64,000 bases of DNA, from positions 1-64,000 of the IMG/VR virus record IMGVR_UViG_3300042545_001167; one strand, written 5' to 3'. This DNA comes from a virus. The position numbers and the translations under genes are program-made. The notes under the pieces are model-generated. The model made no database searches. It worked only from the letters and a program-made list of their open reading frames with translations, and had not been told where the DNA came from. Shown here piece after piece: positions 30,163 to 42,991 of this stretch. Numbering within the stretch: the first letter of the stretch is position 1; the number at the start of each line of letters is the position of its first letter.

Positions 30163-31377
30163 TTATGCGATGAAGTAGGTAGGATCAGTGCCTGATGTGA
30201 TTGCGCCTTTAGAGGTCCTGCCAGATGTAGCCTGTTTCCAGTTGGTTCCTCCTGCGAATGTGGTTACTGGTGTGTTTCTTTGTGTTGCATCATTAGTTCC
30301 CAACATCCCCGTGCCTAAATCTGCGCCCCATGTCCATAGAGTTCCATCAGTTTTAATTGATATCATACTAAATGTCGTTGATGATCCACCAATTCCAACA
30401 GCAACTTGTTTCCAGTTAGTTCCTCCTGCGAATGTAGTGACTGGAGTGCATCTTGCAGTTGTGTTATTGATTCCTAGTTGCCCATAAAGATTACGGCCCC
30501 AAGTCCATAAAGTTCCATCGGTTTTGATTGCTGCCATATTGCCCGGACTAACATCAACTTGTTTCCAGTTGGTTCCTCCTGCGAATGTTGTGACTGGAGT
30601 TGATCTTTTATTTGTGTCATTGGTTCCTAGTCCTCCATAAGAATTATCTCCCCAAACCCATAAAGTTCCATCAGTTTTAATTGCTGCACTGCAACCAAGA
30701 AATGAAGCGCCGGAAGAAACTTGTTTCCAGTTGGTTCCTCCTGCGAATGTTGTGACTGGAGTGTATCTGAATATTGCATCATTAGTTCCCAAAGTTGCAT
30801 CATTACCACCCCAAACCCACAAAGTTCCGTCAGTTTTGATTGCTGCCATACTACTACCATATCCTAAAGAAACCTGTTTCCAGTTGGTTCCTCCTGCGAA
30901 TGTGGTTACTGGTGTGTTTCTTTGTGTTGTATCATTGGTTCCTAATACTCCTGCAGTATTGTCTCCCCACACCCACAAAGTTCCATCTGTCTTAATTGCT
31001 GCTGTTCTTTTATAACCACAAGAAACTTGTTTCCAGTTGGTTCCTCCTGCGAATGTTTGAACGGGAACTAATCTATTGGAAGCTAAATCGTTTGTTCCCA
31101 GTGCTCCACCAAAACGTCCTCCCCATACCCACAAAGTTCCATCAGTTTTCACTGCTGCTGCATGTCCATATCCATAAGAAACCTGTTTCCAGTTGGTTCC
31201 TCCCTCAAATGTAGTGACTGGAGTGGATCTATTGGATGTTGCATTATTTCCTAACCGTCCATTAAATCCTTCTCCCCAAGTCCATAAAGTATCACCAACC
31301 CATTGGTCAATTAACCAATACTCACTCACAAAGTAATTTTCTAAATCTCCTTCTGGAGAATTAAACTGATTAGGCAT
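30163..31377 (-). CDS. RCC1/BLIP-II-type 7-bladed beta-propeller protein (paralogue A)
   Basis: Seven GGTNWKQ...AIKTDGTLW.WG repeats; start overlaps the stop of the upstream fibre gene. Confidence 0.85.
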   Translation of the reverse strand: MPNQFNSPEGDLENYFVSEYWLIDQWVGDTLWTWGEGFNGRLGNNATSNRSTPVTTFEGGTNWKQVSYGYGHAAAVKTDGTLWVWGGRFGGALGTNDLASNRLVPVQTFAGGTNWKQVSCGYKRTAAIKTDGTLWVWGDNTAGVLGTNDTTQRNTPVTTFAGGTNWKQVSLGYGSSMAAIKTDGTLWVWGGNDATLGTNDAIFRYTPVTTFAGGTNWKQVSSGASFLGCSAAIKTDGTLWVWGDNSYGGLGTNDTNKRSTPVTTFAGGTNWKQVDVSPGNMAAIKTDGTLWTWGRNLYGQLGINNTTARCTPVTTFAGGTNWKQVAVGIGGSSTTFSMISIKTDGTLWTWGADLGTGMLGTNDATQRNTPVTTFAGGTNWKQATSGRTSKGAITSGTDPTYFIA

Positions 31378-32986
31378 CTAATTTTCTCTCCAGTTCTTCA
31401 ATACGAACTTGTTGTTCTTTGATTGCTTCAATTAAAAGTCCAACCATATTGGAATAACTTACTGACTTAATGCCATCGCTATTGGTCTCAACGAGTTCAG
31501 GAAGTACTTTTTCTACTTCCTGAGCAATCAAACCAAGTGAAGGTTTATTGTTATTTATCCAATCAAACCTAACTCCATCAAGTTGTTTCGTAATTTCAAT
31601 CGGATTTTCTATAGGTCTTACGTTAGTTTTTTGAGTTGCGTCTGATAGTGATGTAAATTGAGTTGCTGCTAGGTTTCCAGATAGTGGATTAAATTGGAGA
31701 TTTGTTGAAGAAACATTTGCTGCAGAAATAGATCCTGATGTAGAGTCAGTAAATGTAAGATACCTAGTTGCATTTGTTGAGATATCATCGCTTATTGTTA
31801 CTCCACCTCCACCACCTCCACTAATATTAATAGTTGCGATTCCAGAACTAACTGTTACAGTAGAAATTCCCGAACCTCTAAAGTCTAAGAATGTTGCTCC
31901 AGTTCCTACTGTTCCTCCAGCAGTTGCAATTCCGACACCAGCAACAAGTCCAGTTAAGTTTGCGCCAGAGCCAGAGAATGATAATGCGGTAACAACGCCA
32001 GTAAAACTTGCGGTAGTTCCAAATAAGGATGCTGTATAAGTTGTTATTCCAGAGAAGGTAGAAACACCAGAAACATTTAATTGTGCAACAGATGCAATAC
32101 CACCCATAACTGATGTAGCAATACCACTAGAAGTAGCATAAGTTGCTGTACCACTAGAGGTTGCATAAGTAGCAATACCACTTATAGGAACATTTGTTAA
32201 TCCAGAACCATTTCCAACAAATGATGCTGCGGTTATGATACCAGTAGTATTAACTGATGCTGCTGCCGTAAGTGCAGAAGAAATTCCAGCACTAGTTGCA
32301 TAAGTTGCAATACCACTAGAGGTTGCATAAGTTGCTATACCAGCACTAGTCGCATAAGTTGCAGCAGTAGAAATTCCTGCAGTTAATGCATAAGTAGCAG
32401 TACTAGAAATACCACTAGAGGTTGCATAAGTTGCTATACCAGAATTTATGGCATAGACAGCAGAAGAAGCAGAAATATTAGTAAGTTTAGAACCATCACC
32501 ATAATAAGTTACAACACCACTTGTACTTGTGGCAGTTACAATACCAGAAAATATTTTTACCGTCCCAATTGTTGCAATACCAGTGATATTGGCATTAAGT
32601 GCAGTAAACCCACTAAAGGATATACTACCCCCAATATCCAACTTTCCAGTAACACTTGTATCGCCTTGAACATAAAGTGCTGTTTGTCCTGTAGAGACTG
32701 AAGAACGAACATCTAATAAGTAGTTTGGCAGTGCTGTTCCTACACCAACAGAACCACTACCTAATGCTGTAAGAACCGTTCCATTCGTTCCGACGTTTAG
32801 TTCGTTTATAACAGTTGAGATTCCTGTTAGATAAGAATCTGTTGCAATAAACCTACCACGTAGATCTAATTCCACTCTTGGAATAGTAGAACCTATGCCA
32901 ACATTTTTAGTTTGACCGCTTACAATAAGAACGTCAGAATTAACTTCTAATCCGTCTTTTATAACAAACGCTTTTTTAATTGCCAT
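31370..32986 (-). CDS. Tail fibre protein with C-terminal intramolecular chaperone (peptidase S74)
   Basis: F.IKDGLEV N-terminus, GDGSKLTNI, SSGIATYAT repeats, SLSDATQKTNV...[15 protein letters not shown]...VSYSNMVGLLIEAIKE. Confidence 0.85.
   Translation of the reverse strand: MAIKKAFVIKDGLEVNSDVLIVSGQTKNVGIGSTIPRVELDLRGRFIATDSYLTGISTVINELNVGTNGTVLTALGSGSVGVGTALPNYLLDVRSSVSTGQTALYVQGDTSVTGKLDIGGSISFSGFTALNANITGIATIGTVKIFSGIVTATSTSGVVTYYGDGSKLTNISASSAVYAINSGIATYATSSGISSTATYALTAGISTAATYATSAGIATYATSSGIATYATSAGISSALTAAASVNTTGIITAASFVGNGSGLTNVPISGIATYATSSGTATYATSSGIATSVMGGIASVAQLNVSGVSTFSGITTYTASLFGTTASFTGVVTALSFSGSGANLTGLVAGVGIATAGGTVGTGATFLDFRGSGISTVTVSSGIATINISGGGGGGVTISDDISTNATRYLTFTDSTSGSISAANVSSTNLQFNPLSGNLAATQFTSLSDATQKTNVRPIENPIEITKQLDGVRFDWINNNKPSLGLIAQEVEKVLPELVETNSDGIKSVSYSNMVGLLIEAIKEQQVRIEELERKLDA
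32110..32452. repeat. Degenerate 27-nt repeats encoding S(S/A)GIATYAT
   Basis: ataccactagaggttgcataagttgc-type units in two clusters. Confidence 0.75.
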
Positions 32987-33067: not shown

Positions 33068-33637
33068 ATGTCTTATCCATTGGTAATTAGAAATTTTATT
33101 ACAGAAGAAGAAAATGATTATTTTTTAAACTGGATAGAAGAAAATAAATCTTCATATGATCAACATATAAGTTCAGAAGATTACTGGTCCAAAAGATGCA
33201 TATATTATTCTTCAATTAAGGAAGAAGAAGTTAGAGAAAAATTAATTAAGTTAATTGTATCAATTAGAAGTGTTGTAGAGAAAACTTCTATATCTGACCA
33301 AAAACTTTTTATAGAATATCCACAATTTGTTAGGTGGGAAAATAAAGTAGAACTTACTCCACATGCAGATAATATTGAGCAAGATGGAGTTACTCCAAAC
33401 TCATCTCCTTGGAGATCGCACGGAAGTGTTCTTTATTTTAATAGTTCTTTTGTTGGTGGAGAATTATATTATCCAAATTTGAATATAGAAGTTAAACCAG
33501 AACCAAGAATGCTAGTTGTTCATCCAGCAGATTTAAAATTCACACATGGAGTTAAAAAAGTTGAGAGCGGCGTTAGGCAGACATTAAGCGTTTTTTTGAC
33601 TTATGATCCACATGCCGCTCCCGTTTATAACGATTGA
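33068..33637 (+). CDS. Prolyl 4-hydroxylase-like 2OG-Fe(II) oxygenase
   Basis: VIRNFITEEE N-terminus, HAD (HxD), SVLYFN..FVGGELYYP, HGVKKVESGVR (distal His and 2OG-binding Arg). Confidence 0.75.
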   Translation: MSYPLVIRNFITEEENDYFLNWIEENKSSYDQHISSEDYWSKRCIYYSSIKEEEVREKLIKLIVSIRSVVEKTSISDQKLFIEYPQFVRWENKVELTPHADNIEQDGVTPNSSPWRSHGSVLYFNSSFVGGELYYPNLNIEVKPEPRMLVVHPADLKFTHGVKKVESGVRQTLSVFLTYDPHAAPVYND

Positions 33638-33641
33638 ATTT

Positions 33642-36600
33642 TTATTTGCCTGTTGGTGGTGGTGAGACTAGTTTATTGTGAGATAATAAGTTTTCTGAGA
33701 TATAGGTGTGACCACCATCAACTTGAATTGCAACAACCTTTCCAGGTTCTGCACTTTCAATTTTTATAATTGTATGCCCAGAAATAATATCACCAACTTT
33801 TAAACTACAAGCTAAAACCCAACCACTTTCTTCACTATAAAATGTATGAGTAGGTGAGCAGGTAAATTCAACATGATCAAAGATAATTTTCAATCTTTCA
33901 GAATCAACTTGCTTAACATAATCAATTAAGTATTCACCCCATTCTAAAGTATGTTCATGTCGAGTTGTAATTAAATCACCAACTTTTAGATCACCTGCAT
34001 TCTTTTGAGTTCCATCTGCCATTAAGATCTTTGTCCATGGAGCAGGACAGGATGTAATTGGTGGTGATGGATTCGTTACAGGTGGATTCGTTACTGGTGG
34101 AGTAACTATCTTTAAATTGTGAGATAATAATCCTTCACAGATATAAGTGTGAGCACCCTTAATTTGAATTGCAACGACATCTCCATATTCATAATCATCA
34201 ATTTCAAGTAAGGTATGTCCACTTATAATATCCCCAATTACCATATCACAAACTCTAGTCCAACCTTTATTTTCAACATACATTTTATGAGATGTTGAGC
34301 AGACCAAATCTTTGTGGTCAAATTTCATTTTAAATCTATCTTCTTGAACGATAGAAACTTTTAATACAGAGTATTCACCCCATTCTAAAGTGTGTTCATC
34401 TTGAGTTTTTATTAAATCACCAACTTTTAGATCACCCGCATTCTTAAGAGTCCCGTCAGACATTAATATCTTTGCCCATGGTGCAGGACAAGATGGTGCC
34501 AGTGATGGTGGCGCAACTGGTGGCGCAACTGGTGGCGCAACTGGTGGCGCAACTGGTGCGGGTGGCTTTGGCGCTTTTGGTGGTGGTGCTTTTGGTGGTG
34601 GCGGTGGCGGTGGTGGTGACACAAATGCTAACAAGGGGTCTTGCTGTGTTCGTGGGAGAACAAATGGAGGTGGTGGCGGTGATTTTGGCGGTGGTGGCGG
34701 TGGTGGAGGAGGATTTCTTCTGTTGTGCGATAATAATCCGTCACTAATAAAAGTATGTGCATCATCAACTTCAATTGAAACAACATCACCATATTCAACA
34801 CTCTCCACACTTATTAATTTTTGATTACTTACAACATCACCAATTGCCATATCACAAACTCTAGTCCAACCTTTATTTTCAACATACATTTTATGAGTTG
34901 GAGAAAAAATAACCTTAGCATTATCAAAAGTAAGTTTTAATCTTTCCGACTGTAAGGTTGAATTATGTGTAATTGGATACTCTCCCCATTCTAAAGTATG
35001 TTCATGTTGAGTTTTAATTAAATCACCAACTTTCAAATCTCTAGCATTTTTTTGAGTCTTATCTGACATCAAAATCTTTGGAAATGGATTAAAAATTGGC
35101 AGTGGAGATTCTGTTAATTCAATCTTCACTGTACGCGATAACAATCCTTCACCAATAAAAGTATATGCCTCATCAACTTCAATAACAATAACATCTCCAC
35201 TTTCAGCAGGTTCTACTGACAATAGTTTTTGATTACTTATAACATCACCAATTACCATATCGGTAACTAATATCCAACCTTTACCATCAACATACATTTT
35301 ATGAGTTGGAGAGCAAGTAAAGTTAGACTCTTCAAAAGTGAGTTTTAATCTTTCTGAAGGACTTACTTTTTTATAAGTAATTGGATACTCTCCCCATTCT
35401 AAAGTATTTTTATGCTGCGTTTTAAGAATATCTCCAACCACTAAATCGCCTGCATTCTTAAGAGTTCCATCTGCCATTAAGATCTTTGTCCATGGAGCAG
35501 GACAAGATGGTGGTGGTGGCGGCGGTGGTGGAGGAGGTGGTGGGGGTGGTACATATTCGCGAATTACAACTTTTCCAAGACCGGCATTACCACCTTGTTG
35601 CGTAGAAGTAATTATTACAGACCCATCACTATATCCACTTCCACCTCCACCACCTCCACCGTTACCACCATTGCCGCCAGTTGCACCACTGCCGCCATTG
35701 CCTCCAGAATTTATTCCTTGTCCTGCAGTGCCATTAATTCCATATCCTGGTTTATATCCTCTTGCAATTGTTGCCGTATTTGTACTTACTCCTGCAGTAG
35801 GTGTATAGTACTTTGTATTTCCAACATCAGCACATGCAGAAAATCCTAGAGTGGCCCAATATTCACCTTTAGTGCAAGGTAGTACTCTACCTCCGTTGGG
35901 AGCAATTGCTAAAGTATCTCCAGATTTAAGTGTTACGAATTGAACACTAGAACCAAATATACCATTTGAGGGTAATGTTCCTGCAGCATAAAGACTTCCA
36001 CCAGACCCACTGGCAGTAAGACCTGCTACGTTAACGCCACCACCGTCACCGCCACTACCATTTTTTCCTGCATTTCCTCCTCCACCAGCAACAGCAATTA
36101 ATTTTGCTTTTTTATATAGAAAAACACCTCCACCATTTTTAGTTAGAGAAAGAGGCGTGACAGCATATTCTTCATTTTTATTTAATGTTAATCTGATTGT
36201 AGATACTCCACCTCTTCCTCCAACAAAAGTTCCATAATCTGCTCCAGCAGTTCCGTACATATCAATATATGCCTCAATACTTAGTTCTGGTGCATAAAAT
36301 GTAAGAATACTTCCAGGTGGTATTTGATCTGGATTTATTGTATATGGACCTTGAGTAACAATATTCCAAGAATATAATAGTGCCTCAGTACTGTTATCAT
36401 CCGGAATTACTTCAACGTTAAGTATTTTTCTAGGAGCAACTACATCAAGATTGGCATTATTTGTATATAATGGAGAGTTTGAAGCAGTGGGATGAGTAAT
36501 TTTTGCTCTAACAGTATTAATCCCAATATTTGGTAAAGAAATTAAAAGTTCATTTGTTTTAGAACCTTGTATAGTTGCACTGTCCGAAAGATCAGAACCA

Positions 36601-37145
36601 TTTAATTGCCATTGATAAGAAATATTTCCTTGACTAGTATCTGTAATTGATGCATTAGTAACAAATCTTGTATATGAGTTTTGTCCAATAGTACTAATGC
36701 CAGGTTGTTTTGTTACCGATAATGTTGGATAGACTGTTAAAACTGCACTACTAGATGAAATTGGATCATTTATTGCATTTCCAGTTGATCTGGCAGTACC
36801 AACTGTAATTGGATTTTCTCCATATGCAGATGGTATATAATCTGCATTTAAATAAAACTGTTTATTATGATCAGTTGGACTAACGACATTAGAAATAGTT
36901 AATGTCGTAGTTGCAGATCCAGTTACATTTGCACCATCAGTTAATGGTCCATTTTGATCATACCATCGATAAGAAATATATCCAGTGGGTATTGCAGGAT
37001 TTGGTGGAGTTTGTATGGGAAATGTTGCTGTTGCAATACCGATAAAAGTTGCAGATCCACCATTAGTAGTTGCTGCTCCAACTGGATTTGTAGTAAATGA
37101 TAGAATTGGACCGTTTAGATCTAAAGTTGTCTGTTTGTTTAACAT
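33642..37145 (-). CDS. Virion structural protein: Ig-like domains + Gly-rich domain + four tandem Hint domains with polyproline linkers
   Basis: ISYRWY/ISYQWQLNG Ig repeats; AVAGGGG...GGGGGSGY Gly-rich domain; four 125-aa units C-PAPWTKILMADG...SPTH...HT(F/Y)I.EGLLSHN. Confidence 0.8.
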   Translation of the reverse strand: MLNKQTTLDLNGPILSFTTNPVGAATTNGGSATFIGIATATFPIQTPPNPAIPTGYISYRWYDQNGPLTDGANVTGSATTTLTISNVVSPTDHNKQFYLNADYIPSAYGENPITVGTARSTGNAINDPISSSSAVLTVYPTLSVTKQPGISTIGQNSYTRFVTNASITDTSQGNISYQWQLNGSDLSDSATIQGSKTNELLISLPNIGINTVRAKITHPTASNSPLYTNNANLDVVAPRKILNVEVIPDDNSTEALLYSWNIVTQGPYTINPDQIPPGSILTFYAPELSIEAYIDMYGTAGADYGTFVGGRGGVSTIRLTLNKNEEYAVTPLSLTKNGGGVFLYKKAKLIAVAGGGGNAGKNGSGGDGGGVNVAGLTASGSGGSLYAAGTLPSNGIFGSSVQFVTLKSGDTLAIAPNGGRVLPCTKGEYWATLGFSACADVGNTKYYTPTAGVSTNTATIARGYKPGYGINGTAGQGINSGGNGGSGATGGNGGNGGGGGGGSGYSDGSVIITSTQQGGNAGLGKVVIREYVPPPPPPPPPPPPPPSCPAPWTKILMADGTLKNAGDLVVGDILKTQHKNTLEWGEYPITYKKVSPSERLKLTFEESNFTCSPTHKMYVDGKGWILVTDMVIGDVISNQKLLSVEPAESGDVIVIEVDEAYTFIGEGLLSRTVKIELTESPLPIFNPFPKILMSDKTQKNARDLKVGDLIKTQHEHTLEWGEYPITHNSTLQSERLKLTFDNAKVIFSPTHKMYVENKGWTRVCDMAIGDVVSNQKLISVESVEYGDVVSIEVDDAHTFISDGLLSHNRRNPPPPPPPPPKSPPPPPFVLPRTQQDPLLAFVSPPPPPPPPKAPPPKAPKPPAPVAPPVAPPVAPPVAPPSLAPSCPAPWAKILMSDGTLKNAGDLKVGDLIKTQDEHTLEWGEYSVLKVSIVQEDRFKMKFDHKDLVCSTSHKMYVENKGWTRVCDMVIGDIISGHTLLEIDDYEYGDVVAIQIKGAHTYICEGLLSHNLKIVTPPVTNPPVTNPSPPITSCPAPWTKILMADGTQKNAGDLKVGDLITTRHEHTLEWGEYLIDYVKQVDSERLKIIFDHVEFTCSPTHTFYSEESGWVLACSLKVGDIISGHTIIKIESAEPGKVVAIQVDGGHTYISENLLSHNKLVSPPPTGK
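33675..34049 (-). other. Hint domain 4 (Cys1, SPTH, terminal His-Asn, +1 Lys)
   Basis: CPAPWTKILMADGTQK...TCSPTHTFY...GHTYISENLLSHN|K. Confidence 0.8.
34116..34490 (-). other. Hint domain 3 (Cys1, STSH, terminal His-Asn, +1 Leu)
   Basis: CPAPWAKILMSDGTLK...VCSTSHKMY...AHTYICEGLLSHN|L. Confidence 0.8.
34506..34553. repeat. 12-nt tandem repeat x4 encoding VAPP within the Pro-rich linker
   Basis: tggtggcgcaac x4. Confidence 0.9.
34722..35096 (-). other. Hint domain 2 (no Cys1; terminal His-Asn kept, +1 Arg)
   Basis: IFNPFPKILMSDKTQK...FSPTHKMY...AHTFISDGLLSHN|R. Confidence 0.75.
35130..35504 (-). other. Hint domain 1 (Cys1 kept; terminal His-Asn replaced by Arg-Thr)
   Basis: CPAPWTKILMADGTLK...TCSPTHKMY...AYTFIGEGLLSRT. 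Confidence 0.75.
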
Positions 37146-37156
37146 ATCAATCTCCT

Positions 37157-40100
37157 TTAGTTAACAAAGTTTTGTCCGTCAACGAAACCGTACCAAGATA
37201 CTCCACCATCAAAAGTCTTGAATGAATATATATCCGCTCTATTTGCAGTTGGTGTTATGGTTGGCAGAACACCACCACCAGGCCAATAAACCGGTAAAAT
37301 TCCTCCACTAGAATTTCTAAAGTCATCAATATCAACCAGATATCCACCAATTGCATTTTGTGCAATTTTAATAACAAATGAACTTGCTCCAGATGGTGCA
37401 TTAATAATCGTAAATTGATTAACTGTTTCCGATAATGTAAAATCGAATGACTGTGCCTGAGACAGATCAATTGTGACAATATTAGACGAACTTGAGATTG
37501 TTTGAACAACTTCGGAATATGTCTTAAATCTTGTATGCCCCTCAATGTCAAGTTTTGCTCTTGGTACTGCTGTTCCAATACCAATTAATGGACCATTAGT
37601 TGTGAGCGTAGTTCCAGCACTACCAACTATAAGATTTGTTGTAGTAACAATACCTGCTCTAATTTGACCCGATGTTGACTTTAGATCAAATGCCGTTGCG
37701 GTTAGCATTCCGCTTACAAATACATTATTTGCGGTGATAATTCCAGCAAATACTGCCTCTCCATTAACATAAAGTGTCGTTGCAGATGTTCCAACAGGAC
37801 CAACTTCAAGATTAAATCTAGGAACTGATGTACCAATACCAACAGTACCCAATAATGTATTATAAATTCCACCACTAATTTGAGACCACCCGGCAGCACT
37901 TACATTTATATTTGTTAATCCACTTCCATCGCCAGAGAAGTAAGAACCGTAGCAAGTGCCGATGAAATTTGTACTGCCATTTATCTGAAGTTTAAATTGA
38001 TTTGCACTGGTTCCAATGCCAACACCACCACTTGAATTAATGGAAACAATTGAAGATCCACCACCAACCTGAAGAAGATTGGAACCGGGACTTGTGGTTG
38101 CAATACCAACCTGATCAAAGAGAGCAATATTTAAATCTTTGGAAAGGCTGACAGCACCAAAACGATACCATTCATTGTCAGTAGTATAAACCCATCCAAG
38201 ATATCCACCCTTCGTTGGATTTTGATAGTAAATTACATCTCCAGGATTACCCGAAAGTATTGGTGTAGTAACTCCAACGGTATATTTTCTAGAAACTGTA
38301 GCATCGCCCTGCAAGAACAGCGAGAATGCTTCAATACCTTTATTGGAAGTTGATGTTATCTTATTTCCAAATACAACAGGTCCATTAAACTCAGAAATTG
38401 ATTTGCCATCACTACCACCATCAACACGAATTGAACGACTAAATGTTCCTTGAACTGGAGTAATAACATTTAATCCAGGAAGTCCTCCAATATCTTCACC
38501 AGTTACAGTTTGGACAGGAGTATCAAAGATTTCTTCTTGACCTGTAACTGAACTCAATCTCTTATTTCCTGAGTATGAAATACCCTTATCATTCATACCA
38601 GTATAGAAGTTAATACCACCATCTTTTCTGGTTGATTGTGCAAGGAGTTCCTCTATTGAAGAAATCTGACGATCTTGTTTATCTGGGAATGCAGTTGAAT
38701 AGTTACCAGGACCAAATCCAACATATTCAAATGTATGACCAGATGCACGAATGATTGAATGCCTACGGAACTCAATTGGATTGGCATAAATTCTTCTTAC
38801 AACAGAGTTGACTGAATGACTAACTGCTTTTGTTCCAAGAACTCCACGGAAAACATAAATTGGATTTGTTGGAGTACTTGGAATAGTTGTTTTTACTCTC
38901 ACGATTTCTTCGTCAATTACCAAATAATCACCAATTTTAATATCAAGATTTTCAATATTTTGAATGTTAATCTGGTCCGTAAGTGCATCTGGAATAAGTG
39001 CTGATAAAGTAGTTGTAATTCCAGCATAAGTTGGAATCATTCTGCCATTTAAATTTTCATTATCAACTGTAATTGTACCACCATTTGATGTTACACCTTC
39101 GCGATATGCATAAAGAGTTCCTGCTGCTGAAGGAGAAAATGTTCCAACACCAATCGTAACGGAGAATGAATTTAGATTGAGATTTTCTTTGACAACAAAA
39201 TCTCCGTTATATATTTCTTCAGTAGATCCTATTAAACGAATCTTATTATCAACCTTTAACCCATGACGGTTAGAAGTTGTAATAGTTGCAATTCCAGAAT
39301 TATTATCATATGCCAATGAACTAACTCTAATTGCTTCTCCAGTTAGGTCAGCAAATGCATTTAATGTAAATTGCGTTCCAATACCAAGTGTTGAACCAAC
39401 TGAAATTGAAGATGCAGAAGAAACTGCAAATCTATACCCAGCTCCAACAGTAACATTTGTAATTCTATAAAGATCATTAAATGTAGAATAACCTTCGGAG
39501 GATACTCCAGAAATTCTGATAGTATCTCCAACATTATTATAGATTTGAGTAACTGTTACTACTGCCGGAGAATATCCTGTGGTTGTTGCAACACCTACAA
39601 CAGAAAGAGTATTTCCAATTCCATAAGAAGACCCACCATCCATGATTACAATATCAGAAATAGATCCTGATCCATCTACTGATATTTTGGCAGTAGCGAA
39701 GGCACCTGTAGCAGATCCAGCAAATCCAACAAGACTTGCATTATATAAACTTGTAGCACTTCCATACCCATATCCAGATCCAGCATTAGTAATACTGACT
39801 TGTGTGATACGATTTAATCCATGATCAATAGCAGTATGTACAGTATGTGTAGATGCATCTGTTGAAGTAATATCTGTAATAGCAATGCCTACATTACTAT
39901 CCGATAGAACTTTGGAGATTGTTTCTTTTGTAATACTCTTACGGACATCATTAACTACAACTTCACCAATTACTGATGAAGATGCAAACGATTGAGTCTC
40001 ATCTGGATCTGATTCTGGATTATCACGATTTGTTTGCGGATAAAGTTCTTTTACTGGTTGAGAATATTTTTCCTCAGTAAAAGGATCAACACTTGGGGAA

Positions 40101-42991
40101 TTGGAGGAATTTAGAACAGTTAAGTAATAGACACCATCTTGTTGCCCTGCAATATATTTTTGTGCTTCTTGAGTTTTGAGATTATAATAGGTATTCTTAT
40201 ACTTACTTCTTTTAAAATATGGAAGAGAAGAATCTCTTGCTGAAATATCATTTGTTAATGCACCTGGATCAGTGTCTAAAGCAAATGTAAATACTTTAGC
40301 ATTTGTAATTGTACTTACTACATAAGTTCCATTATATCCAGAATTACTTGCACCAATTACATTATTTGAACTTTTAATATTAAAAAATGTGACTTCAGAT
40401 CCTACTGATAAATTATGAGGAAGTTCTGTAGTGATATATGCAATACCTGCTTGCCACTGGGCATCAGCAACGAATCTAAAGTTTCTTTGCTGATTTACAT
40501 TTGAAATAGAACCAGCACCAAAATAAGTTTGAATTTCTCCGCTAGTTGCTCCAATAGTGGTATTAGATTCTTGAATAACAAATCCATCACTTGGTGGTCT
40601 TGCATACAATCCAGAAGATGCGGGAATTACATATCTTAGACGATAAATCGTATCATTTGCATTTCTTGAATCTTGCTTACGATTGATATATGTTCTAGGA
40701 GTTGCTGCACCAAGAATAGTTGAACCAAAACTTACGATTGCTGGATAAATCTTATTATCAGTTTCACTGTTTGATACCTGAATATACCATTGTGAATTAT
40801 TGTAATCAAACTGAACTGGGTGTCCAATGTCCCCAGAATTCTTATCAGATACTCTACTTACAACACTTAAAATACCACCTTTGTTGTTAATTAAAATCTC
40901 ACTTGCACTGATGGCATCGTTTTGAGTTTTTGCAAGTTTCAGTTGCGTAGTTGTTGTAAGTCCACTGCTTGCATTACTACTCGTAATTGCATAATAAACT
41001 GTATTTGGCAACAAACCATCAGGAAGTTGTCCATTATCACTCAATATGCGAACTGATTCTCCATTTATAAATGTATGATTTTGTGTTAATGAAAGTGTAT
41101 TGCTGGAAATATTATTAATACCAGAAATACTACGACTTACATAGAATTTCTTCTCAGAAGTTGTCTGAGATCCAGGCATTACAATACGAGCACTATATTC
41201 TGATGCAGTGCTTCCTGCTGAAATTATAACTTTTAGAGTATCATTTTCTCTAGCACCAATACGATATCCTTCTAGAACATTTTCTGGTGCAACATCAGAG
41301 TTTGTTTGATTATAAAGATAGAGATATCCTGTTGAAGCAACCCCAACGGTCTTACTTACGTCAATTGAATTAAATTCAATTGCGGTTTCAACCTTTGGAA
41401 TTTCTTTTGGTGGAATAATATGAGTGATATAACCAAGATCATCTTGAGGAAATGCATTTCTTCTAAAACCTGAAGCAACAAGTGCCTTTGCTCCAAAGTT
41501 AGAGTTTGAGTTGGTAACTGAAAAGTCACCACCACTTTCTACAGCAAAATGTTCAGCATAACCAATCGCAAAGATTGAAACATTCTGAACAAATGCATCA
41601 TTAATTGCCTTAATATGGAAATTCCTATATGTGGGTTTAAAGATTGCTCTTGAATTTGTACTAATTGTCTCATTTCCAGGAACTGTAGTATCATCATAAG
41701 TTCCCGTAGATGAATTGTACAATACAAACGCATTATCATCTTTCTGCAATCCAATACCCGTGAATTGGGCAATAACCATTGATTTAAATCCTGATGCCTT
41801 ATCACCATCAGCAAGAACTCCGCACATTCCATAAACAGAACGTAAAGAGATGTTAAAGATGTATGGAGATGCTGAAGTTACAGTATCGGAAGTAAGTGAT
41901 AAAGTTGACCCAGTTGATGATGGGAAAGCAACCAATGGGGCATTTTGAACTTGATATTTAATTACAGTGTCACTTAATTTTTCAGTTACAACAAATTGTC
42001 CGTTATAACCTTCTGCAATAATACCAGAAATTCTGAATGGAGTATCTACATCAAGGCCAGATACGCCAGATTCAGTAGTAACTGTAATTATTTTTGATGG
42101 AGTAATTCCATTACCAGAAATAATACTTGAAATACCAACAGATGCTCCAGTAGAACCTACAATACGATATTCATCAATCTTGGGTTGAATATCAATGCTA
42201 GATGAAGGATAATCTGGTTCAATTGCACGACCAGATGATTGTCCATATGCAAGTCCAACTTTCTCATAATACATATCCAGGTCAGTACGATCTGTTGAAT
42301 ATGTTTGAAAAACATCATCAATATTTACATCATTTACTCCATCAGCATATTCAAAGCAAGATAATTTGTGATGAGAGAAGTTAGGTACAAAAAGATTTTC
42401 AGTGTAATCAAGATAGCACTGTCCATTTGGATCGGCATCAAATAAAGAAAACTGCCATATATAACATCCGCCGGTTACACGGAAAATAGTCGATCTTTCA
42501 ATATTATCGTTAGTTGGATTGGGAACATACTTTGGACGAATTTTAGTCTTTCTTAAATCGAGTCCAACAATTGAAGTACCACGAGGAATAATAACTCCTC
42601 CATGAATACTATTCATTTTATAAAGTACGTTATCTGATGTAGTGAGATCAAAGTTTGATGTTAAATCCCAAGCAGGAAAATTATTACTTGTAGAACCATT
42701 CCTAAGTCTAAAATTATTTGAACCATCAGGAATCCATCCTGGACGATTATCTATAACGTGATCGCCTGGATATAGAAGAATTGTTGTTTTACCAAATCTA
42801 TCATTATTCAGTCCTCTTTGGTAAGAGAATCTTGATGCCTCAATTAGTGCTCTTTGAATCGTTTTAAATGGACGAGTCAGTGAGTTTCCTTGATTCTCAA
42901 TACTATCCGTAGAATCAAGACTGTTTGGATCAACATATATGATTGTACCACGAACAGACTTTAGAAAATTATCTAAACGAGAGAGACCCAT
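37157..42991 (-). CDS. Large virion structural/tail fibre protein (1944 aa) of cyanomyoviruses
   Basis: MGLSRLDNFLK...PFKTIQRALIE N-terminus, beta-helix segment (PRGTSIVGLDLRKT), HGL/HNL repeats, GIGT fibre repeats, C-terminal DIYSFKTFDGG..W. Confidence 0.75.
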   Translation of the reverse strand: MGLSRLDNFLKSVRGTIIYVDPNSLDSTDSIENQGNSLTRPFKTIQRALIEASRFSYQRGLNNDRFGKTTILLYPGDHVIDNRPGWIPDGSNNFRLRNGSTSNNFPAWDLTSNFDLTTSDNVLYKMNSIHGGVIIPRGTSIVGLDLRKTKIRPKYVPNPTNDNIERSTIFRVTGGCYIWQFSLFDADPNGQCYLDYTENLFVPNFSHHKLSCFEYADGVNDVNIDDVFQTYSTDRTDLDMYYEKVGLAYGQSSGRAIEPDYPSSSIDIQPKIDEYRIVGSTGASVGISSIISGNGITPSKIITVTTESGVSGLDVDTPFRISGIIAEGYNGQFVVTEKLSDTVIKYQVQNAPLVAFPSSTGSTLSLTSDTVTSASPYIFNISLRSVYGMCGVLADGDKASGFKSMVIAQFTGIGLQKDDNAFVLYNSSTGTYDDTTVPGNETISTNSRAIFKPTYRNFHIKAINDAFVQNVSIFAIGYAEHFAVESGGDFSVTNSNSNFGAKALVASGFRRNAFPQDDLGYITHIIPPKEIPKVETAIEFNSIDVSKTVGVASTGYLYLYNQTNSDVAPENVLEGYRIGARENDTLKVIISAGSTASEYSARIVMPGSQTTSEKKFYVSRSISGINNISSNTLSLTQNHTFINGESVRILSDNGQLPDGLLPNTVYYAITSSNASSGLTTTTQLKLAKTQNDAISASEILINNKGGILSVVSRVSDKNSGDIGHPVQFDYNNSQWYIQVSNSETDNKIYPAIVSFGSTILGAATPRTYINRKQDSRNANDTIYRLRYVIPASSGLYARPPSDGFVIQESNTTIGATSGEIQTYFGAGSISNVNQQRNFRFVADAQWQAGIAYITTELPHNLSVGSEVTFFNIKSSNNVIGASNSGYNGTYVVSTITNAKVFTFALDTDPGALTNDISARDSSLPYFKRSKYKNTYYNLKTQEAQKYIAGQQDGVYYLTVLNSSNSPSVDPFTEEKYSQPVKELYPQTNRDNPESDPDETQSFASSSVIGEVVVNDVRKSITKETISKVLSDSNVGIAITDITSTDASTHTVHTAIDHGLNRITQVSITNAGSGYGYGSATSLYNASLVGFAGSATGAFATAKISVDGSGSISDIVIMDGGSSYGIGNTLSVVGVATTTGYSPAVVTVTQIYNNVGDTIRISGVSSEGYSTFNDLYRITNVTVGAGYRFAVSSASSISVGSTLGIGTQFTLNAFADLTGEAIRVSSLAYDNNSGIATITTSNRHGLKVDNKIRLIGSTEEIYNGDFVVKENLNLNSFSVTIGVGTFSPSAAGTLYAYREGVTSNGGTITVDNENLNGRMIPTYAGITTTLSALIPDALTDQINIQNIENLDIKIGDYLVIDEEIVRVKTTIPSTPTNPIYVFRGVLGTKAVSHSVNSVVRRIYANPIEFRRHSIIRASGHTFEYVGFGPGNYSTAFPDKQDRQISSIEELLAQSTRKDGGINFYTGMNDKGISYSGNKRLSSVTGQEEIFDTPVQTVTGEDIGGLPGLNVITPVQGTFSRSIRVDGGSDGKSISEFNGPVVFGNKITSTSNKGIEAFSLFLQGDATVSRKYTVGVTTPILSGNPGDVIYYQNPTKGGYLGWVYTTDNEWYRFGAVSLSKDLNIALFDQVGIATTSPGSNLLQVGGGSSIVSINSSGGVGIGTSANQFKLQINGSTNFIGTCYGSYFSGDGSGLTNINVSAAGWSQISGGIYNTLLGTVGIGTSVPRFNLEVGPVGTSATTLYVNGEAVFAGIITANNVFVSGMLTATAFDLKSTSGQIRAGIVTTTNLIVGSAGTTLTTNGPLIGIGTAVPRAKLDIEGHTRFKTYSEVVQTISSSSNIVTIDLSQAQSFDFTLSETVNQFTIINAPSGASSFVIKIAQNAIGGYLVDIDDFRNSSGGILPVYWPGGGVLPTITPTANRADIYSFKTFDGGVSWYGFVDGQNFVN

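Follow-up and report, generated by a model that had tools for sequence, protein, structure and literature searches.

The window analysed here, i.e., the first 64 kb of the 116.7-kb IMG/VR virus record IMGVR_UViG_3300042545_001167 (a record that is ~53% complete), carries on its minus strand a long open reading frame (ORF) in which a conserved host part is followed by a Pro-rich C-terminal region with four predicted domains of the Hint (Hedgehog/intein) type. The features of this locus are given below, with Cys1 denoting the first residue of a Hint unit, and –1 and +1 the residues directly before and after it.

33642..37145, minus strand: the whole gene, one ORF of 1167 amino acids (aa) encoding immunoglobulin (Ig)-like domains, a Gly-rich domain, and Pro-rich linkers with four Hint units.
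35550..37145, minus strand: the conserved host part (aa 1–532), with tandem Ig-like domains and then the Gly-rich domain ending in GKVVIREYV.
35505..35549, minus strand: a run of 14 Pro (aa 533–546) in mixed CCA, CCC, CCT and CCG codons, plus Ser547 as the –1 residue of unit 1.
35130..35504, minus strand: Hint unit 1 (aa 548–672), keeping Cys1 and S-P-T-H, with Arg-Thr in place of the terminal His-Asn and Tyr in place of the preceding His.
35097..35129, minus strand: VKIELTESPLP, an 11-aa spacer joining unit 1 to unit 2, with a cleavable junction at neither side.
34722..35096, minus strand: Hint unit 2 (aa 684–808), with Ile for Cys1, His-Asn kept, Arg at +1 and no Lys at +1 to +3.
34491..34721, minus strand: a 77-aa Pro-rich linker of (VAPP)n-type repeats, varying in length and sequence among close relatives.
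34617..34664, minus strand: a 16-aa non-Pro island, FVLPRTQQDPLLAFVS, within the 77-aa linker, with one change in related contigs and otherwise kept.
34116..34490, minus strand: Hint unit 3 (aa 886–1010), with Cys1, S-T-S-H and His-Asn all kept, Leu at +1 and Lys at +2.
34050..34115, minus strand: a 22-aa Pro-rich linker, LKIVTPPVTNPPVTNPSPPITS, with a 15-nt repeat and another sequence in relatives.
33675..34049, minus strand: Hint unit 4 (aa 1033–1157), with Cys1, S-P-T-H and His-Asn all kept and Lys at +1.
33642..33674, minus strand: the 10-aa tail KLVSPPPTGK and the stop codon.

An earlier reading of this DNA (hereafter the original prediction) had placed the four 125-aa units, the 11-, 77- and 22-aa linkers and the KLVSPPPTGK tail at exactly these positions, and had counted 13 residues in the Pro run where 14 are found. 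It had also described the four units as equal, which is true of their length (each unit has 125 aa and aligns without gaps, at 55–63% identity to unit 1) but not of their catalytic residues. Unit 1 ends in ...LLSRT vs. ...LLSHN and has Tyr instead of the His that the other three units show in the A-H-T-[FY] block just upstream, and unit 2 starts with IFNPFPKIL vs. CPAPW.KIL in the other units. The block-B motif [ST]-x-x-His is present in all four units (H68 being invariant), and Cys1 in units 1, 3 and 4. Judged by these residues, only units 3 and 4 are predicted to be catalytically complete, with unit 1 retaining the N-terminal end only and unit 2 the C-terminal end only.

A hidden Markov model (HMM) of the four units, run against the whole 116.7-kb record, returned exactly these four places and none else. 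Within the array, Tandem Repeats Finder reported a 408-nt period (1.9 copies, 77% matches) across units 1 and 2, as well as short perfect repeats in the linkers. The array recurs, in whole or in part, on six further IMG/VR contigs: all four units are present on five of them at 96% identity, and on L012, which is truncated at its end, the last two are visible. The array is therefore no assembly artefact, and the end losses of units 1 and 2 recur identically in all five full related contigs.

The Hint identity proposed in the original prediction was borne out by profile search and structure prediction alike. Summed over the whole protein, the Pfam models Hom_end_hint and Intein_splicing scored 46.9 bits (cut-off 32.1) and 41.0 bits (cut-off 35.8), respectively. 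When compared with solved structures, the four-unit profile matched BIL2 from BUBL1 of Tetrahymena thermophila best (PDB 6Y75/6TMM; E-value of 2.5e-6), and further 8W20 (3.9e-6), 2LWY of Clostridium thermocellum (a bacterial intein-like, or BIL, domain; 8.4e-5) and the gp41-1 intein (7.3e-4). An AlphaFold2 (AF2) model of unit 3, built on a 38-row alignment, reached a predicted local distance difference test (pLDDT) score of 98.2 and a predicted template modelling (pTM) score of 0.90. Foldseek again ranked BIL2 of Tetrahymena BUBL1 first for this model (template modelling (TM) score of 0.89), with 2LWY at 0.88, mini-inteins at 0.82–0.89 and Hedgehog 1AT0 at 0.87; of the 60 PDB matches at E ≤ 1e-3, 42 were listed, every one of them an intein, BIL or Hedgehog domain. 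By profile and predicted fold, membership of the units in the Hint superfamily is thus confirmed.

Inteins depend on a Cys, Ser or Thr at +1 and are located at conserved sites within essential proteins. That the units are canonical class-1 mini-inteins, splicing via such a +1 residue, is barely credible, despite their sequence and fold likeness to the mini-inteins gp41-1 (cyanophage-like, PDB 6QAZ; 125–128 aa, TM score of 0.82, with Cys1 and His-Asn) and Ssp DnaB. The +1 residue is Arg, Leu or Lys in units 2, 3 and 4, as the original prediction had it for the array; unit 1, however, has no His-Asn and hence no splice-type junction at its C-terminal end. Moreover, four copies lie within one gene, at sites in variable linkers and at the C-terminal end rather than in a conserved motif of an essential protein, and the Pro-rich C-terminal extension that holds the units is absent from 43/43 other complete orthologous ORFs.

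The absence of a +1 Cys/Ser/Thr nucleophile had already led the original prediction to liken the units to BIL domains over splicing inteins, and a closer resemblance to type-A BILs than to canonical inteins is indeed supported. Type-A BILs (e.g., PDB 2LWY) share with the window the combination of Cys1, block-B His and terminal His-Asn without Cys/Ser/Thr at +1, and they occupy variable regions of non-conserved proteins, cf. the hypervariable linkers of the window and the presence or absence of the array among orthologues. His-Asn without a +1 nucleophile is found in units 2, 3 and 4. This likeness is one of features, as Pfam, NCBIfam and PHROGs hold no type-A model and the nearest proxy is 2LWY (E-value of 8.4e-5), and the window domains differ in being viral and in having their own Cys-Pro-x-Pro start and a Lys after His-Asn. 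Type-A BILs are described as cleaving at both ends and splicing weakly (PMC4031507). Equating BIL with cleaving only, as the original prediction had done, was therefore too strong, since, according to the same source, these domains are also capable of joining their flanks with no nucleophile at +1 (PMC4031507).

With BIL2, the best solved match, the window units share 18–19% identity, and BIL2 is eukaryotic (from a ciliate). The ciliate BUBL loci provide a precedent for a polyprotein with multiple BIL domains, and BIL2 reportedly hands its N-flank to a Lys amino group (PMC8616854). As in the window, intein-like domains there alternate with short modules, yet this alternation is analogous only: BUBL flanks are ubiquitin-like, whereas the window has 11–77-aa Pro-rich linkers and no ubiquitin-like domain according to Pfam. 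A third comparison concerns PT-HINT (PF07591), the pre-toxin Hint domain found in polymorphic toxins of bacteria, which is described as an autoproteolytic releaser directly preceding a C-terminal module (PMC3482391). Most of the 38 aligned members of the wider Hint clade treated below match this Pfam family (22/38 at E ≤ 1e-3, with Intein_splicing in 16/38), and the phage receptor-binding-type domains Mtd_N and BACON were also present among them. In the window, however, unit 4 scored 22.8 bits for PT-HINT vs. a cut-off of 27.7, the other units had no match, and the array is followed by a 10-aa tail and no toxin domain. Type-B BIL/Hint_2 (PF13403; 13.1 bits vs. 28.4, unit 3 only) did not apply to these units, in which His-Asn is present, and neither did the Hedgehog Hog family (PF01079; 13.4 bits vs. 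29.7), there being no sterol-recognition region after unit 4.

The four-unit profile was then run against 1.84 billion cluster representatives and matched 2138 clusters at E ≤ 1e-3, with 449 at ≤ 1e-10 and 80 at ≤ 1e-30. Junctions were tabulated in the best 150 of these 2138 clusters together with the window, revealing a clade with a Cys-Pro-x-Pro start and a His-Asn end as its hallmark. Among the full-length units, 125/126 start with Cys and 125/126 end with His-Asn, the exceptions being window units 2 and 1, respectively, and both ends are intact in 122/122 of the units outside the window. At –1, 92/126 of the full-length units have Gly, Ser or Thr, and the +1 residue is Lys in 88/126, Ser or Thr in 5/126 and Cys in 0/126. 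When all units reaching the last profile position were counted, Lys was found at +1 in 117/159, at +1 or +2 in 151/159, and within +1 to +3 in 155/159; because the profile stops at the Asn, this Lys was not selected by the search. The flanks are Pro/Gly-rich (13% Pro upstream and 19% downstream vs. 2.8% inside the units), and the protein continues for at most 12 residues after His-Asn in 25/159 units and for more than 100 in 80/159.

That a Lys is so strongly conserved after His-Asn may point to chemistry beyond hydrolysis. This Lys would have a role if the Hints spliced without a Cys/Ser/Thr nucleophile, i.e., if they excised themselves and rejoined their flanks as intein-like insertion elements, using either the α-amine freed by Asn cyclisation (as proposed for type-A BILs) or the Lys side chain at +1 or +2 (giving an isopeptide bond, cf. 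BIL2). The product would then be a mature protein with a continuous Pro-rich tail of ~124 aa. We deem this course rather unlikely, although both the unselected Lys within +1 to +3 and the joint conservation of Cys1 and His-Asn in 122/122 units outside the window, including those with tails of 1–12 aa, speak for it. The nearest solved relative, BIL2, reportedly splices via a Lys ε-amino isopeptide bond (PMC8616854, section 2.4), and type-A BILs are able to splice; for the latter, cleavage products nevertheless predominate (PMC4031507). Within the window, moreover, positions +1 to +3 of unit 2 are without Lys, and the active ends of units 1 and 2 are in separate domains, making coupled splicing unlikely unless the halves swap. 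A bolder proposal, to which we give still less credit, is that the clade consists of lysine-directed ligases, in which the Cys1 thioester would be resolved by the Lys at +1 or +2 or by one belonging to a different protein of the virion or host surface, so that the array would be a multi-shot covalent coupler attached to a phage fibre protein; a single active site might then be made up of units 1 and 2 by half-swapping.

As to the distribution of the clade, a pattern-based scan of IMG/VR located at least 140 places on viral contigs, and the 72 new loci examined corresponded to 62 distinct ORFs, 58 with one unit and 4 with two. Two pattern-limited scans of 185,579 prokaryote species (one genome each) yielded 0 and then 5 loci, the best of them 44% identical and located on a 9-kb contig of a metagenome-assembled genome. 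No close clade member was present in 50,697 GenBank phage records, where the nearest matches to a typical member were true inteins in terminase and RecA genes and matches in Lak megaphages, all at ≤38% identity. The domains thus form a distinct, largely virus-borne Hint clade that is so far metagenome-only. Among the proteins listed, a count of four units was equalled only by P0044, in which the stretches are partial and of a more distant type with a Cys-Phe-Leu-type start; more distant Hint types likewise reach four stretches (P0102, with four tabulated and five listed by the profile search). The literature covered, outside of which most subscription journals fall, yielded no paper on phage structural proteins with Hint arrays. 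This agrees with the original prediction, to which no described phage system of this kind was known, but the architecture is not unique, as many viral proteins contain one or two units of this clade and the BUBL loci are a precedent.

PHROGs assigned eight Hint-bearing viral ORFs to families of unknown function (phrog_358, phrog_877 and others) or gave no match. Two phrog_358 members of ~1700 aa each (L073 and L099) have their Hint unit at residues 103–231 and 1316–1444, respectively. These differing positions in homologous proteins fit insertion-like behaviour, as expected if the units spliced themselves out and rejoined their flanks.

Some clade members have a build of their own. Between one and three Hint units of this clade occur in seven very Arg/Lys-rich proteins (P0006, P0007, P0008, P0010, P0033, P0034 and P0038), which have a common C-terminal motif, ...[FY]-[IV]-[ST]-T-[LI]-[RG]; from their sequences these proteins look like polyproteins of short basic segments with Hints between. 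In P0008, P0010, P0054, P0063, P0066, P0071, P0075, P0078, P0084 and P0098, an insertion of ~25–35 residues, which has a helical look in P0008 and P0010, divides the Hint match at profile position ~36/37; this position is not known as the usual insertion site of homing endonucleases. Finally, P0004 (586 aa) consists of a Gly-rich region, Pro-Pro-Tyr-Tyr linkers, two Hints and then SDIRLKTNI, which we take to resemble the start of an S74 chaperone domain, and it ends soon after, probably at the contig end.

The gene that hosts the array was characterised via its conserved part. PHROGs matched aa 189–530 to phrog_24848 (unknown function; E-value of 1.7e-124), and tblastn identified homologues of the host part in the Kyanoviridae cyanomyoviruses P-TIM68, Bellamy and S-SM2 (33–40% identity). 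In P-TIM68 and Bellamy the homologue comes directly after a ~2000-aa tail-fibre gene, and the gene in the window likewise comes directly after a tail-fibre gene (phrog_529, 37157–42991). An AF2 model of aa 1–547 (pLDDT of 85.5) gave Foldseek matches to tandem Ig-like domains only, with no fold match for the Gly-rich domain in this 547-aa model. The neighbouring tail-fibre genes and the Ig-like domains make the host protein a putative component of the virion or tail-fibre module. The whole gene had no megablast match in GenBank phages, where tblastn with the Hint region found one distant gut-phage contig only (31.8% identity).

Orthologues were compared at 54 IMG/VR loci with the host domain, 5 of which run off the contig and 1 of which (L066) was left uncounted since the wrong ORF had been taken. 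Four Hints were present at 4/54 loci (near-identical relatives of the window) and two at 1/54 (L033, like P0005), and 43 complete ORFs were without Hint. The original prediction had raised the question whether cyanophage homologues stop at the Gly-rich domain, and this is what the P-TIM68 and Bellamy homologues do, as well as 28/43 of the Hint-less ORFs, which stop ≤50 residues past the last GSGY-type motif of that domain; the other 15/43, in contrast, have other C-terminal modules.

One pair of loci bears directly on the origin of the units. A poly-Pro run and a Ser/Pro linker are common to L029 and L033, as are the host domain (63% identity) and a C-terminal domain of 65–69 aa (58% identity), and in the linker before this C-domain L033 has two Hints vs. 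none in L029. The pair shows the units as apparent insertions in a Pro-rich linker and, since it resembles an empty and an occupied site with the downstream domain retained, it also counts in favour of the flanks being rejoined. After its last Hint, L033 continues with KLVAP... (cf. the window tail KLVSPPPTGK). The C-domain itself (L029:5657-5896 and L033:6500-6754) starts with GVAGGFNQN..., belongs to no Pfam family and has no copy in the window's 116.7-kb, ~53% complete record.

A maximum-likelihood tree of 60 units (full-length only, from P0001–P0060; bootstrap not fully settled) grouped the window's four units in one clade (UFBoot 98/SH-aLRT 97), with units 1 and 2 as sisters (96/87) and the first units of P0004 and P0005 as sister to the window clade (95/75). 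Since the four units form one clade, with units 1 and 2 as sisters and a 408-nt period across them, the array appears to have grown by local duplication. The units have no homing endonuclease and could spread only by duplication and recombination, which is a point against the rejoining of flanks.

To assess selection, dN/dS was computed against the 96%-identical relative L007. It amounted to 0.121 for the four units together (32 synonymous and 16 non-synonymous changes) vs. 0.233 for the host domain, and to 0.095, 0.358, 0.06 and 0.088 for units 1 to 4, respectively, the per-unit counts being small. The linkers showed a dN of 0.155 and 19 gapped alignment columns, and in the 96%-identical relatives the counterpart of the 77-aa linker has 64 aa, while the 22-aa linker has another core. 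The sequence changes thus indicate units under purifying selection and fast-changing linkers.

This variability bears on what the linkers could be for. The original prediction had regarded them as defined Pro-rich peptides or effectors, but they are the fastest-changing part of the gene, so that a spacer role fits hypervariable linkers better than an effector role. It is accordingly improbable that the array is a dispensing platform, whose thioesters would hand the N-flank (the structural domain or the 77- and 22-aa peptides) to other molecules, or whose peptides would act as effectors. Thioester chemistry is inherent to Hint domains with Cys1, and the 16-aa non-Pro island is kept between lineages, with no other occurrence among the fetched proteins and loci. 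The peptides themselves, however, differ even among the 96%-identical relatives, and inter-Hint peptides are no family trait, given the single unit in 58/62 distinct viral ORFs; there is, moreover, no acceptor or sterol-recognition-like region, only 10 aa following unit 4. Hypervariable, low-complexity flanks are also without obvious need of being rejoined.

Purifying selection could in principle be accounted for by folding alone, i.e., if the units were catalytically silent beads on a Pro-rich string, serving as spacer or decoration or persisting as decaying remnants. The loss of one catalytic end in both unit 1 and unit 2, stable across five related contigs, would suit such a role. We nevertheless give it little probability, for units 3 and 4 keep all catalytic residues, and beads would not need the Cys1 and His-Asn that are invariant in 122/122 of the units outside the window.

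Some Hint autoprocessing very probably occurs, and the C-terminal 620 aa are best read as an accessory array of four type-A-BIL-like Hints, and not as a producer of defined peptides. The best explanation of its origin is that it grew within the C-terminal, Pro-rich linker of a protein from the tail-fibre module in a relative of the T4-like cyanophages. As for the outcome, we see an even chance that cleavage dominates, with the array removing itself, aa 1–547 being left and the spacers arising as by-products. In this mechanism, Cys1 would undergo an N-S acyl shift after translation, converting the preceding peptide bond into a thioester, and the terminal Asn would cyclise and thereby cut the following bond. 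The thioesters would mostly be hydrolysed, as in type-A BILs, and the Hints would excise themselves. The literature on type-A BILs describes such a course for domains with His-Asn and no +1 nucleophile, namely mainly N- and C-terminal cleavage with some splicing via the freed amino group (PMC4031507, PMC7664689). The expected products are the structural protein of aa 1–547 ending in ...PPPPPS, a 261-aa piece comprising units 1 and 2, and units 3 and 4 in free form, with the spacer peptides as by-products. Because units 1 and 2 each have one active end, they would at best form one joint excision unit of 261 aa, and the 11-aa spacer between them would be no product. As a whole, the array would in that case be either a C-terminal pro-region that removes itself or an insertion element that is tolerated.

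Several points weigh against cleavage as the dominant outcome, or against parts of this reading. Taken singly, all units score below the Pfam gathering thresholds (the best at 24.9 bits vs. 35.8), the autoprocessing is predicted from fold and residues with cleavage as its deduced result, and the virion status of the host protein is drawn solely from neighbourhood and domain type. Pure hydrolysis leaves unexplained both the Lys at +1 or +2 in 151/159 units and the retention of His-Asn in the 25/159 units with ≤12 trailing residues, and together these two features point to coupled chemistry. Furthermore, the C-domain of the Hint-less L029 stays covalently attached, so that cutting in L033 would alter the product. 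Lastly, with one active end gone from both unit 1 and unit 2, and with the Lys absent from unit 2 as well, part of the array may be in decay.

Hint chemistry underlies inteins, Hedgehog signalling and many protein-engineering tools, and the gene described here and its relatives reveal a large, mostly viral clade of such domains in linkers of phage structural proteins that is apparently undescribed. If the Lys reacts, these 125-aa domains would be natural ligases independent of Cys/Ser/Thr, and of practical interest as such. If they only cut, they would give phage fibre proteins a second route to shed a C-terminal region, unrelated to that of the Peptidase_S74 chaperones. In either case, the array amounts to a natural dissection within one gene, with one unit predicted to be active at the N-terminal end only, one at the C-terminal end only, and two complete.

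Next to the Hint gene, at 33068–33637 on the plus strand and tail-to-tail with it, the window encodes a 189-aa 2OG-Fe(II) oxygenase (PF13640, 31.3 bits). A homologue of this oxygenase adjoins the gene only in 4 near-identical relatives among the 54 loci, and none lies within 4 kb of the poly-Pro-bearing L029 and L033. A conserved pairing in which the oxygenase would hydroxylate the poly-Pro linkers thus has no support among the 54 loci.

Two further candidates at the locus were set aside. An AXH match (33.3 bits, cut-off 33) was judged to be a false positive arising from summed repeats, and a plus-strand ORF of 91 aa at 34472–34747, lying over the Pro-rich linker, was taken as the antisense of Pro codons (giving Val/Ala/Gln/Leu repeats) and is most likely no gene.

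Further downstream, at 31370–32986 on the minus strand, lies a fibre gene with Y-A-T-S-[AS]-G-I-type repeats and a C-terminal Peptidase_S74 domain (PF13884, 53.5 bits). The S74 tail-fibre chaperones are a functional analogue of the array, being C-terminal domains that cut themselves off a fibre protein, although their fold is unrelated to Hint and their chemistry is different. Adjacent genes of this fibre module would thus contain two different self-processing solutions, i.e., S74 and the predicted Hint array.

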